A DNA stretch of 64,000 bases from Escherichia phage 308Ecol101PP: the sequence record OR062945.1. One strand, given 5' to 3'. The stretch's first letter is position 1. The number at the start of each line of letters is the position of its first letter. The translations under genes were made by a program, and so were the position numbers. The notes under the pieces were generated by a model, which saw only the letters and a program-made list of their open reading frames with translations, ran no database searches and was not told the origin of the DNA. Shown here in pieces: positions 990-48,545 of the stretch.

Positions 990-1080
990 GAATCTAGGTT
1001 CTATCCATTCAAATTAAACATTGGGCCGGAGATAGAGTCTCTGCTAATTATTTTGATATTATTATTTATAATGGTGATTT

Positions 1081-2079
1081 ATGTTTAAGAAATACAGCAG
1101 TCTTGAAAACCACTACAACTCTAAGTTTATTGAAAAACTCTACACTAATGGTTTGACTACTGGTGTTTGGGTAGCACGTGAGAAAATCCATGGGACCAAC
1201 TTCTCGTTAATAATTGAACGTGACAACGTCACATGCGCCAAGCGCACAGGCCCTATTCTTCCAGCAGAAGATTTTTACGGCTATGAAATCGTACTCAAGA
1301 AGTACGATAAAGCTATTAAAGCCGTTCAGGAATTAATGCACGAAGCTCGAGCAGTATCATATCAAGTATTCGGTGAATTCGCTGGTGGTGGAATCCAGAA
1401 AGGTGTTGACTACGGTGAAAAAGATTTTTATGTGTTCGATATCCTTATCAATACAGAAAGTGGTGATAATACGTATTTGACCGATTACGAAATGCAAGAT
1501 TTCTGTAATGAATTCGGTTTTAAAATGGCACCAATGCTTGGTCGTGGAACATTTGATGCTCTTATCATGATTCCAAATGACCTTGATTCCGTCTTAGCCG
1601 CTTATAATGCTACTGCGTCAGAAGACCTTGTAGAAGCAAATAATTGTGTATTTGATGCTAATGTTATTGGCGATAATACAGCAGAAGGTTATGTTCTGAA
1701 GCCGTGTTTCCCTAAATGGCTGCCAAACGGTACTCGTGTAGCTATTAAGTGCAAGAACTCTAAATTCAGTGAAAAGAAAAAGTCTGATAAGCCTATTAAA
1801 ACTCAGGTTCCATTAACAGAAATTGACAAAAACTTGCTTGATGTTCTAGCTTGTTATGTTACATTAAATCGTGTTAATAATGTGATTTCTAAGATTGGGA
1901 CTGTAACGCCAAAAGATTTTGGCAAAGTGATGGGATTGACTGTTCAAGATATTTTGGAAGAAACTTCTCGTGAAGGTATTGTATTAACATCATCTGATAA
2001 TCCAAATCTTGTTAAGAAAGAATTAGTCCGAATGGTGCAAGATGTTCTGCGTCCTGCATGGATTGAATTAGTATCATAA
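1081..2079 (+). CDS. rnlB: RNA ligase 2
   Basis: 332 aa; N-terminus [21 protein letters not shown] and motif EKIHGTN match recalled T4 Rnl2 almost along full length. Confidence 0.95.
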
Positions 2080-2109: not shown

Positions 2110-3393
2110 TTATTCATCAATGATAATTTTTGGTAGCTTAACACCGAGTAAAACAGACAAGTCTGAACGTCCTGCCATTTTATCCATGTCCCCACCATCG
2201 ATTATTCTCGCTTCTTTTTCGTCTTTTGCTACTGTGTAAGGATTTGCTGATAAAGCATATCTAACCAATAATCCAATAGACGGTTGCAAGCTTTCTGGAT
2301 CAACTACAACTTTAAAAGCACCGACATGTTCCGGGTCATCTAAATCTACTCCTTCAGTGTATGGAGCATAAAAGATGGACCCTACAATTTCTTTTTCGCC
2401 GATATTTTCTACAACACCTACAATAACATAATCTAACGGACTGTTGGTATCGCAGTAAAGAGGTAATCCATTTGCCAAGAATCCATAAGCATTTTGTGAA
2501 AGATACTTGTCATCTTCTGGCTTATGTTTTAACCAACCGGAAGCAGCAAGAATAGCAGCCGCACGAGCTGAGGCTACACAAAACGTTGCAGTATAAGTCG
2601 TCTCTTTTTGAATGTGCGATACCATTTCACACACCATTCGATATAATGAACGACCTGCTTCTGGAGCGGATGCATAGCTCAAGTCAATAAATCCGGTATC
2701 GGTAATTCCAGTAACTTTATAACGTTTCGATACAGTAATTAAAGACTGAAGAATATCTTTATTAATTTCATCAGCCATTTCAGTAGCAAGCAAATCTTCT
2801 AAGAAGTTAGGGGCATCAAATCCATTCGCTTCCAAATCTTGCGCTAATTCGACCGTGAGGCCAGTTTTAAGTTTACGTGATTTGACTGAAGTTTGCCATT
2901 TATTAATCTGGAATCTTGCATCAGAAATTTCGCTATCGGAGCTTTCAAATTTGCTTGTTACCGCTGCATCTGAAAATAACCGTACCTTTAAATGAACGAC
3001 TGCAATCTGAAGAGCTAGTTCTAGATCACTTTCTTGAATATCTGCAAATGGTGTATCTTCTAACACTTTATAGACGATATTATTATATTTGAAAAAATCA
3101 CCTTTATTTAGTGTGACTTTTGATTCTTCTGTTAGCTCAGTAATTTTTTCTCGGTCTACATATCCAACTTCACCCGCATAAGTAGCGCCAGTTTTAAATG
3201 TGAATTCGTTATCTGGGTTAAGATATTTGATACCATAAAAAGCAGCAACAGGTTGATTAGTTCTTTGTGTTGCTACAATGTCAGAATATATTAATTTAGT
3301 CGTAGCGCGAGTCAAAGCAACGAGATTTGGGCGACCAATTGAGTTGCTAGTAGACGTTGTAGATTCACGCAATAATTTTTGGATTTTACTCAT
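2110..3393 (-). CDS. 24: capsid vertex protein gp24
   Basis: 427 aa, same length as T4 gp24, directly downstream of gene 23 on same strand; capsid-fold paralog of gp23. Confidence 0.9.
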   Translation of the reverse strand: MSKIQKLLRESTTSTSNSIGRPNLVALTRATTKLIYSDIVATQRTNQPVAAFYGIKYLNPDNEFTFKTGATYAGEVGYVDREKITELTEESKVTLNKGDFFKYNNIVYKVLEDTPFADIQESDLELALQIAVVHLKVRLFSDAAVTSKFESSDSEISDARFQINKWQTSVKSRKLKTGLTVELAQDLEANGFDAPNFLEDLLATEMADEINKDILQSLITVSKRYKVTGITDTGFIDLSYASAPEAGRSLYRMVCEMVSHIQKETTYTATFCVASARAAAILAASGWLKHKPEDDKYLSQNAYGFLANGLPLYCDTNSPLDYVIVGVVENIGEKEIVGSIFYAPYTEGVDLDDPEHVGAFKVVVDPESLQPSIGLLVRYALSANPYTVAKDEKEARIIDGGDMDKMAGRSDLSVLLGVKLPKIIIDE

Positions 3394-3420
3394 TGCATTT
3401 TTTCCTTATGTGATATAGAT

Positions 3421-3428
3421 TATTTATA
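3421..3428 (-). promoter_or_regulatory. late promoter for gene 24
   Basis: TATAAATA on minus strand 28 nt upstream of ATG at 3393. Confidence 0.6.
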
Positions 3429-3434
3429 AAGATT

Positions 3435-3470
3435 GTTTACAACGTATTTGGTATGTGATACTATAGACTT
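3435..3470 (+). promoter_or_regulatory. early-type promoter for the 89-aa ORF
   Basis: GTTTACA at 3435-3441, TACTAT -10 about 17 nt downstream, then GAGGAG RBS. Confidence 0.45.
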
Positions 3471-3494
3471 ATCAACTACAGAGGAGTAAACAAA

Positions 3495-3764
3495 ATGACT
3501 AAAGCACGTTTCTTACGAGATACTTTAAAAGTTCTAGAAGCTGAAGCAGTTAAGTTAGTAGAAAAATATGGTGCAAAAGTTAATGGTAATGCCTTCAACA
3601 AAGTATGGATGAAAGTTGATTCTGAAGCTCGAGCTAAAGGTTATTGGGCCACTGATAAACTTGCATCATTCAAAAACAAAGACGGTTCTCTAGCATATGT
3701 CCAAGAAGGTATGCCTAATTGGCAAAATATTTTGAAAACTTACATCGAAATTGCACAGAAATAA
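3495..3764 (+). CDS. hypothetical 89-aa protein, antisense between genes 23 and 24
   Basis: ORF with GAGGAG RBS 8 nt upstream; own early-type promoter. Confidence 0.6.
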   Translation: MTKARFLRDTLKVLEAEAVKLVEKYGAKVNGNAFNKVWMKVDSEARAKGYWATDKLASFKNKDGSLAYVQEGMPNWQNILKTYIEIAQK

Positions 3765-3774
3765 AACCAAAAAT

Positions 3775-3792
3775 GGGAGACCGAAGTCTCCC
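3775..3792 (-). terminator. terminator downstream of gene 23
   Basis: GGGAGAC-cgaa-GTCTCCC hairpin followed by T-run on minus strand. Confidence 0.65.
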
Positions 3793-3816
3793 AAAATAAG
3801 ATTTAATCAATTAAGA

Positions 3817-5385
3817 TTAGATGCCTTTTACATATACACGGCGGAAGTAAGCGTTCTTACCAAGGCTGTTCAGGATAGACGGCATACCGGACTGGATGCG
3901 AGCACCTGGAGCCTGCAGGGAACTTTCAGCAAACGGGTTAACACCGATACCGTAACGAGTTTTAAAGCCCATTACCGGCTGGAAGTTCTTAGGATCGGAA
4001 CCACGCAGTGGGGTAAGTGCAACGTAAGGAGCATAGTAAATACCTGCATCCATTTCGTTAGCGCCTTTGTAACCAACGGTGAAGTAATCCTGTTTAGCAT
4101 ACTGGTCGATGTATACGCGGTATTTACCACCAAGTACACCGGCAAATACGGACTTAGTAGTGTCGGTATTAAAACCAGAAGCCAGACCCTGTGCAGCATA
4201 AGAAATACCAGTATCAACTGAAGCCAGTACGTTAACTACGTTACGGGAAGCGATAATGAAGTTACCTTCACCACGACCGGTTTGACGAGCAATTTCAACT
4301 GCTTCTTTATCAATCTGGAACAACAGAGATTTAAAGCTTTCACCGGCCCAACGAGCACCACGGATATCAATCGGGTCCTGGAAGTCAAATACACCAGCTT
4401 TAGAACCCGGAGTCAGGGTCATACCAGATTTACCAACCTGTGCTGAGTAGTTAATCCAATCAACAACTTCACGGTTGATTTCTAGCATAATTTCTGTAGC
4501 CAGAATACCGCTCAGTTCAGCATCAGCATCCATACCGTGTACTGCACGGAGGTCTTGTGCTAATTCGATAGAGTAAGCAGCTTTCAGCTGGCGAGATTTA
4601 GCTTCAATAACTTGTTTATCGATACGGAAGCCCATTTCATTCCATGGGTTATCGGTAGAACCGTTGAAACCTTCCTGGAGTTCAGCGATAGAAGTAGCCA
4701 TACCTTCAGCGATTTCTACCAGTGCACCAGCTTCCATTTGTTTCTTAACTTCTGCATCTAATTTAGCTGCATCAGTTGCACCAGAATCAAGTGTTACGAT
4801 AGCAGAAGCTTGCAGATATACAGTACCAGTTTCTTGGAAGAAGTGAGTATAGATATCACCTACAACAGTAGTAGTGTCAGCAGCCAGAGCTGGGAATTTC
4901 TTAGCAGCACCCTGACCAGAGAACATCGCGTCTGGGGCATACATCGGATGGAAAGCTTCTTTAGCGCCAGCAGCGATAGGGTCTTTACCATATACTGCAC
5001 GGAGAGCAAATACCTGACCGGTCGGGCTGTTCATAGGCTGAACACCACAAATATCAAAAGCGATCAGATTAGGAATAGCACGTCGAACCATACCCATAAC
5101 TGCCGGCCCAATTTGGGTTACTGCACCAGAGGTTTGACCCGCTGCGATGTTCTGAGCATTATAACCATGGTCACCGCCAATTTCAGCTTCGGTCAAGAAA
5201 GAACCAAACGCCTGAGCGATTTTCTCGTCTTTATATTCAGGGGATACTTCGAAATCTTTTTCCTGGTTTTCGAAGATTTTAGCGATAATAGCCTGCTTGC
5301 TATTAGCGATTTCCGGCAGGCCTTCACCTTCCAGCAGTTCTTTCCATTTGTCTACGAGCTGAGCTTTAGTTTTGATAGTAGTCAT
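3817..5385 (-). CDS. 23: major capsid protein gp23
   Basis: 522 aa; near-identical along full length to recalled T4 gp23 (MTTIKTKAQL...FRRVYVKGI). Confidence 0.97.
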   Translation of the reverse strand: MTTIKTKAQLVDKWKELLEGEGLPEIANSKQAIIAKIFENQEKDFEVSPEYKDEKIAQAFGSFLTEAEIGGDHGYNAQNIAAGQTSGAVTQIGPAVMGMVRRAIPNLIAFDICGVQPMNSPTGQVFALRAVYGKDPIAAGAKEAFHPMYAPDAMFSGQGAAKKFPALAADTTTVVGDIYTHFFQETGTVYLQASAIVTLDSGATDAAKLDAEVKKQMEAGALVEIAEGMATSIAELQEGFNGSTDNPWNEMGFRIDKQVIEAKSRQLKAAYSIELAQDLRAVHGMDADAELSGILATEIMLEINREVVDWINYSAQVGKSGMTLTPGSKAGVFDFQDPIDIRGARWAGESFKSLLFQIDKEAVEIARQTGRGEGNFIIASRNVVNVLASVDTGISYAAQGLASGFNTDTTKSVFAGVLGGKYRVYIDQYAKQDYFTVGYKGANEMDAGIYYAPYVALTPLRGSDPKNFQPVMGFKTRYGIGVNPFAESSLQAPGARIQSGMPSILNSLGKNAYFRRVYVKGI

Positions 5386-48509: not shown

Positions 48510-48545
48510 GTTTACTTCCTCCAAGGGTTTTGATACTATACATTC
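48510..48545 (+). promoter_or_regulatory. early promoter for denV
   Basis: GTTTACTTCCTCC...TGATACTATA. Confidence 0.5.

Follow-up and report, generated by a model that had tools for sequence, protein, structure and literature searches.

We analysed a 64,000-nt stretch of DNA from Escherichia phage 308Ecol101PP (OR062945.1; henceforth the window), which, as judged by similarity to known genomes, is part of a Mosigvirus (i.e., RB69-like) genome: over the 451 bases around the locus studied here, identity reaches 100% with Escherichia phages HX01, JS09 and DCP548 and is at least 95% with more than 130 further records, which come almost without exception from RB69-like T4-type phages (Mosigvirus). 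The genes follow one another in the order rnlB (1081-2079, plus strand), gene 24 (2110-3393, minus strand), an 89-aa ORF (3495-3764, plus strand), gene 23 (3817-5385, minus strand) and genes 22 and 21. Genes 24 and 23, both late genes, correspond to ORFs of 427 and 522 aa and are annotated, in records 99-100% identical to the window, as encoding the capsid vertex protein gp24 and the major capsid protein gp23, respectively. The sole non-coding gap between them, bounded by the ATG of gp24 at 3393 and the stop codon of gene 23 at 3817-3819, holds what is probably a self-contained accessory early-gene cassette in the opposite orientation, in which the 89-aa ORF is convergent with gene 23. The genes rnlB and 24 are convergent too, and related records annotate a terminator on both strands of the gap between them (2080-2110); here too, as at 3774-3793 (see below), two convergent genes would share a hairpin.

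The initial annotation had placed an 89-aa plus-strand ORF with a GAGGAG ribosome-binding site between the two minus-strand capsid genes. That ORF (ATG at 3495, TAA at 3762-3764) is a real protein-coding gene, as indicated by its conservation, the selection acting on it and its confidently predicted fold. Its product matched the phrog_6003 profile over its full length (E = 7.2e-45, with residues 1-89 aligned to positions 1-90 of 90). AlphaFold2, run on the family alignment, returned a model with a pLDDT of 91.6 and a pTM of 0.77, consisting of two helices (residues 3-25 and 31-48), a beta hairpin (52-70) and a C-terminal helix (76-88). Across 21 family sequences seven residues were invariant (M1, K3, F6, G31, N32, N35 and Q70). 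All family members are hydrophilic and basic (GRAVY of -0.4 to -1.0; pI of 8.0 in one and 9.2-9.9 in the others), nearly all are free of cysteine, and none resembles a membrane protein. The 89-aa product of the window has a pI of about 9.6.

Pfam, NCBIfam and PADLOC yielded no family for the 89-aa protein, a sequence search of the PDB found no solved relative (best E = 0.87), and structure comparison of the model gave no informative neighbour; by its predicted structure, the family has a new fold. There was likewise no match to a nuclease family in Pfam or NCBIfam, and a GIY-YIG domain is absent from this protein of only 89 residues. Several candidate relationships were considered and set aside. 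Pfam DUF4859 scored 17.8 bits, below its cut-off of 22.6, and was matched by 3 of the 21 members, all of them near-identical. Two giant repeat proteins found by exhaustive search, P0009 (E = 1e-11) and P0011 (E = 7e-6), are not homologues: their scores stem from 5-10 near-identical repeats, each stretch alone reaching about 26 bits, and the family-invariant residues G31, N32 and Q70 are among those unmatched. A PHROG family labelled ‘internal virion protein’ was matched only weakly (E = 0.022), far from significance. Within the window the protein has no paralogue, and the DNA repeats found there are shared promoter-leader motifs. Our literature search found no paper discussing the function of RB69ORF188c, as the RB69 counterpart is called, and no ribosome or proteome data on the gene.

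The homolog search that the initial annotation had proposed showed that the gene is widespread. Using tblastn, we detected the 89-aa protein in 240 phage records, in 237 of which it appeared as a single uninterrupted match. Homologues of the same length, in the same slot and orientation and with 30-38% identity, were found in Gaprivervirus VR7, Dhakavirus JS98 and the metagenomic T4-like phages L013, L016 and L017, which places the gene family between genes 23 and 24 in three Tevenvirinae lineages besides Mosigvirus. In diverged pairs, synonymous differences were saturated (pS of 0.59-0.93) compared with a pN of 0.19-0.30. More distant members (about 33-36% identity) lie within long arrays of small same-strand genes on contigs of 35-141 kb of the Vequintavirinae type, and one occurs in a similar array in the Vequintavirinae phage ABPH49; in another phage, a distant member adjoins a GpJ-like tail gene. 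The Vequintavirinae-type homologues sit far from any capsid gene, which argues that the protein itself, and not its position opposite gene 23, is the unit under selection. As a separate observation, the phages VR7 (L003), JS98 (L004), L013 and L016 carry two tandem copies of gene 24 (24a and 24b) upstream of the slot; since L016 combines this duplicated backbone with an ORF of the Mosigvirus type (60% identity), the subtype of the ORF is not tied to that of the backbone.

Disrupted copies of the gene also occur. In the RB69 reference (L018, NC_004928, 5292-5532) it is annotated as two pieces, ORF189c (29 aa) and ORF188c (41 aa), because, compared with the intact copy of the window, it carries two indels, +1 and -1, some 150 nt from each other; these may be either real disruptions or old sequencing errors. 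The homologue in phage mogra is split, and the copy in phage 310Ecol104PP is frameshifted to 64 aa. Taken together, these cases suggest that the gene is dispensable, at least in the laboratory. The near-universal retention of the gene in Mosigvirus and its synteny across genera, both read from sequence comparison, could nevertheless point to a role more specific to this locus than the label ‘generic accessory gene’ implies.

Upstream of the ORF we found a T4-type early (sigma-70) promoter on the plus strand, GTTTAC-N18-TACTAT with an extended -10 element (3435-3464), as the initial annotation had suggested from its GTTTACA...TACTAT boxes. The -35 box GTTTAC(A) occupies 3435-3441, the TG 3456-3457 and the -10 box TACTAT 3459-3464, i.e., the arrangement follows the expected GTTTAC, spacer of about 17-18 bp and TGnTAnnAT. 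Directly upstream of the -35 box lies the A/T-rich sequence TTATTTATAAAGATT, an UP-like region that overlaps the late promoter box of gene 24. In the window as a whole the pattern GTTTAC-N14-16-TGNTANNAT occurred 8 times, all on the plus strand, against 0.08 expected, so that this promoter class is enriched about 100-fold and confined to one strand. The ORF starts 31 nt past the -10 box. The promoter is conserved, with the same layout, in the eight phages we aligned; it is annotated in OL960576, and an RB69 early promoter, Pe:109605, was predicted with a score of 29.9 (Nolan et al. 2006, PMC1524935, supplementary tables). From the usual spacing we infer a transcription start near 3471. The Shine-Dalgarno sequence GAGGAG (3481-3486) lies 8 nt ahead of the ATG, and the leader with its translation-initiation region is unstructured (-3.1 kcal/mol, z = +0.92). 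GGAG is the core of the sequence at which the T4 nuclease RegB cleaves many early mRNAs (PMC3014915), and the GGAG within this GAGGAG may thus be cleaved by RegB. A literature search found no early-infection transcript data for the locus.

The -10 box and the initial transcript form a motif, TACTATAGACTTATCAA (3459-3475, plus strand), that is common to six other early promoters of the window. The sequence TAYTATAGACYTATCAA (i.e., the -10 box and about the first 11 transcribed bases) was found at seven plus-strand sites (3459, 40294, 40855, 45240, 51750, 58813 and 60289) against 0.05 expected, and at each of them a ribosome-binding site of the GGAG type and an ORF come next. The module often continues with CTAC..GGAG and precedes unrelated early ORFs. 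It resembles the promoter half of the PeSL cassettes discussed below, with no upstream stem-loop at the sites sampled. A variant of the early promoter at 48534 also precedes an ORF, which, from inspection by eye, we take to be denV-like.

On the opposite strand, the T4-type late promoter box of gene 24, TATAAATA, is present as an exact match at 3428-3421 (minus strand; it reads TATTTATA at 3421-3428 on the plus strand), 28 nt upstream of the gp24 ATG and thus, as expected of a late promoter, a short way ahead of a late gene with the same orientation. The late promoter that the initial annotation had described alongside the early one is therefore there, only 6 bp from the -35 box, and its position is invariant in the eight aligned phages, which represent at least five lineages. 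It is annotated in OL960576, and an RB69 late promoter, Pl:109573, has been predicted at gene 24 (Nolan et al. 2006, PMC1524935, supplementary tables). Because the upstream region of the early promoter includes the late box, at 6 bp from the -35 box, the two promoters presumably cannot be occupied simultaneously. In the whole window TATAAATA is enriched only about 2-fold (16 observed compared with 7.4 expected). A further exact copy at 1063-1070 (minus strand) lies just upstream of the start of rnlB and antisense to the 24.2/24.3 homologues; given the modest overall enrichment of the motif, it could be a chance match.

The far side of the ORF is closed by an 8-bp G+C-rich hairpin, TGGGAGAC-CGAA-GTCTCCCA (3774-3793), 23 nt from the stop codon of gene 23. 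On the minus strand it presents a C(UUCG)G loop followed by UUUUUGGUUUU, so that a G+C-rich stem-loop with the U tract TTTTTGGTTT stands at the end of gene 23, and the reading of the hairpin as the gene 23 terminator held up well. Its folding energy is -13.5 kcal/mol on the plus strand and -16.1 kcal/mol on the minus strand, better than 200 of 200 shuffled sequences on either strand. All seven phages compared keep the late-strand U tract (7-8 U in 9-10 nt), and in VR7 and T4 the sequence of the stem differs while the pairing is kept. For RB69, Nolan et al. (2006, PMC1524935) list a TransTerm terminator, ‘23-><-RB69ORF188c’, which likewise lies solely on the strand of gene 23. By these sequence features gene 23 ends in a canonical intrinsic terminator.

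For the early strand the picture is different. After the hairpin the plus strand of this phage reads AAAATAAGAT, with 2 T in 10 nt, and it thus lacks the U tract of an intrinsic terminator for the 89-aa ORF; a terminator scan reported the minus-strand site only. Among the phages compared this tail varies between 2 and 8 T in 10 nt, VR7 having a proper U tract (8/10 T). With no U tract on the plus strand, the hairpin probably does no more for the early mRNA than stabilise its 3′ end or make the polymerase pause. Farther downstream on that strand there are just weak stem-and-T-run matches, at 4877 and 6303, and this, with the T-poor tail, suggests that some early transcription probably runs antisense into the 3′ end of gene 23, as the initial annotation had proposed. 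OL960576, however, annotates the hairpin as a terminator on both strands, in which case read-through may be small. Antisense RNA that is not translated is expected to be limited by Rho and decay. Scanning 3000-4300 against Rfam yielded nothing above threshold, the weaker matches being terminator-like. One hairpin common to two convergent units is also found among convergent-gene terminators, but conservation of the U tract is confined to the late strand, so that in this phage the hairpin is not a symmetric bidirectional terminator.

To compare the slot across phages, we aligned the region from the gp24 start to the start of the cargo in eight phages including T4. The CAT of gene 24, TATAAATA, (G/A)TTTACA and TGnTAnnAT occur with fixed spacing in all eight. 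The cargo differs: in T4 and T6 it is segD, a gene for a GIY-YIG homing endonuclease on the same strand as the 89-aa ORF, and segD of that kind was found in about 53 records. In T2, RB14 and hundreds of other Tequatroviruses there is an 83-bp gap (at 300-384 in T2, L020) with the late promoter and the hairpin and no GTTTAC box, which suggests that the early promoter travels with the cargo. Direct evidence of cassette exchange between genera comes from the Tequatrovirus 310Ecol104PP (L005, 2400-2815), in which flanks that are 96-97% T4-like surround a slot 96-100% identical to that of Dhakavirus JS98, with the breakpoints of the transfer at the ends of genes 24 and 23. From these comparisons, the slot is an exchange site with three states, i.e., empty (T2-type), occupied by segD (T4, T6) or occupied by the 89-aa family (Mosigvirus, Dhakavirus, Gaprivervirus and related metagenomic phages).

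The arrangement itself is already public, the gene and all three signals having been annotated previously. The record OL960576 (SA79RD; 99.3% identical) contains the late promoter, the early promoter, a hypothetical protein and the terminators on both strands, and the record of PhAPEC2 describes the gene as similar to RB69ORF188c. RB69ORF188c/189c, PhAPEC2_170, SA79RD_184, JS98 orf173 and VR7ORF190c (phrog_6003) are the same gene as that of the window, in the same slot and orientation. As a discovery the locus therefore matters little, the more so as its topology was already noted for T4 segD. Its value lies in the conserved, confidently folded family common to several coliphage groups, which makes it a candidate early effector, and in the gap between genes 23 and 24 as a site of exchangeable cassettes, with its three states and a case of transfer between genera.

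Mobile PeSL (promoter-early stem-loop) cassettes of T4-type phages (Arbiol 2010; Comeau et al. 2014, PMC4122927), whose promoter-leader modules are repeated in the genome, offer a close likeness. As in these, a conserved early promoter (TTTACW-N17-TAYWAT), a ribosome-binding site and a start codon precede a small variable ORF that only some close relatives possess, and copies of the module recur in the genome; the conserved promoter/ribosome-binding site/ATG module stands beside insertions, deletions or replacements among related phages. Full membership of this class was nevertheless rejected because no stem-loop lies upstream of the early promoter, the region 3385-3436 folding at only -2.6 kcal/mol (z = +0.87). 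The locus also differs from PeSLs in that its only hairpin is downstream of the ORF and its site is in a conserved structural block and not in a hyperplastic region.

We consider it likely that the locus is an ordinary T4-type early accessory unit in a variable slot, whose functional product is the protein, whose expression is separated in time from that of the adjacent late promoter, and whose cassette is exchanged via its flanks. Specifically, judging by motif class and conservation, the sigma-70 RNA polymerase of the host would fire the early promoter at 3435-3464 right after infection, and the short unstructured leader with its GAGGAG would drive translation of the basic, soluble 89-aa protein in the first minutes. 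The protein would most likely be cytoplasmic, with a macromolecule of the host or the phage as its target; the analogy of other small, basic and dispensable early proteins shared between phage groups makes a host-directed takeover or anti-defence role the most likely one. The early mRNA would end at the hairpin at 3774-3793 or be trimmed back to it, and polymerases passing the hairpin would produce untranslated antisense RNA of the gene 23 3′ end, probably cut short by Rho and decay. Later, with the early promoter off, gp55-polymerase would use the adjacent TATAAATA for gene 24, and transcripts of gene 23 would terminate at the same hairpin, with the U tract on their strand. The normal early-to-late switch would separate the two promoters in time, and recombination in the conserved flanks would move cassettes between genera.

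The initial annotation implied that the locus exists for the sake of its antisense arrangement. Transcription of the early strand across from late genes is possible, as with the classical ‘anti-late’ RNA of T4, on which our literature search returned nothing usable. The early plus-strand RNA might then be the functional product, delaying or tuning genes 23 and 24 through anti-late RNA, promoter occlusion or polymerase collision, with the ORF secondary. The absence of a U tract behind the plus-strand hairpin (with 2 T in 10 nt), the merely weak matches farther downstream (4877 and 6303) and the physical overlap between the upstream region of the early promoter and the gene 24 late promoter all agree with such a role. 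Nevertheless, we regard it as quite improbable, as selection acts on the amino-acid sequence of a confidently folded protein, homologues occur in genomes with no capsid gene nearby or downstream, and the plus-strand tail is not conserved, ranging from intermediate forms to the good U tract of VR7 (8/10 T). In addition, T2-type phages have the same capsid genes with no cassette and no early promoter in the gap, T4 has segD instead, and untranslated antisense RNA would be a substrate for Rho. Antisense transcription into gene 23 thus remains plausible from the sequence, but it is not what selection preserves, and the implied purpose of the arrangement is not supported. At the other extreme, a chance open frame in the spacer, never translated, might be suspected from the short length of the ORF (89 aa) and from the two fragments that are all the RB69 reference shows; given the phrog_6003 match, the 237 of 240 intact copies, the invariant residues, the pN and pS values, the AlphaFold2 confidence and a strong, well-spaced ribosome-binding site in an unstructured leader, this is scarcely credible, and the comparative data have, in effect, already refuted it.

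Two further readings accept the protein and differ on its role. The fixed place of the gene, which at least four Tevenvirinae lineages keep in strict synteny in the gap between genes 23 and 24, would be explained if the protein were an accessory of head morphogenesis, e.g., a chaperone or regulator of gp23 or gp24, in keeping with the ‘internal virion protein’ match (E = 0.022). That match is far from significance, however, and an early promoter on the strand opposite to every head gene, the absence of the gene from T2 and T4 (which build the same head), its disruption in the viable laboratory phage RB69, and distant homologues among small early-type Vequintavirinae genes and not among head genes make such a role very unlikely. 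The cassette might also be selfish or neutral cargo of a recombination hot spot, a module with its own promoter that spreads, like homing endonuclease genes, in a PeSL-like or flank-mediated manner with no benefit to the phage: T4 and T6 carry segD, which encodes a homing endonuclease, in the same slot, a cassette has passed from one genus to another, the promoter-leader modules are repeated in the genome as for PeSLs (PMC4122927), and several phages carry disrupted copies. We consider this rather unlikely, since the protein has no nuclease or recombinase signature, the PeSL definition fails for want of a stem-loop before the promoter, and purifying selection long enough to saturate synonymous sites, with 237 of 240 copies intact, speaks for a selected function.

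A broader form of the early accessory unit is possible, though we hold it only tentatively. Here the gap between genes 23 and 24 would be a conserved landing pad into which unrelated cargo is exchanged between Tevenvirinae genera, an early promoter being supplied at one end and a terminator hairpin at the opposite end, and the commonest cargo, phrog_6003, would be a basic early effector with a new fold, shared with Vequintavirinae and hitting a host component such as a defence system or the nucleic-acid machinery. T4 segD shows an identical topology, being an opposite-strand gene with the late promoter box TATAAATA of gene 24 at one end and the C(UUCG)G terminator hairpin of gene 23 at the other, but its product is unrelated (223 aa with a GIY-YIG domain, compared with 89 aa without a nuclease motif). 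According to a review (PMC2988022), it alone among homing endonuclease genes points the opposite way to its neighbours (genes 23 and 24), no segD-specific promoter could be identified, and very low expression is expected; a multi-omics paper on T4 mentions neither segD nor antisense RNA. If the landing-pad reading is true, segD, reported as promoterless, would be served by an orthologous, slightly degenerate early promoter. Indeed, upstream of segD in T4 (L007, NC_000866, about 107233-107322) we found ATTTACA-N17-TATTAT with the TG, orthologous to the early promoter of the window; the latter fully matches the early consensus, whereas the T4 counterpart is of early type. As a small new lead, the T4 segD gene may thus have an early promoter that was overlooked.
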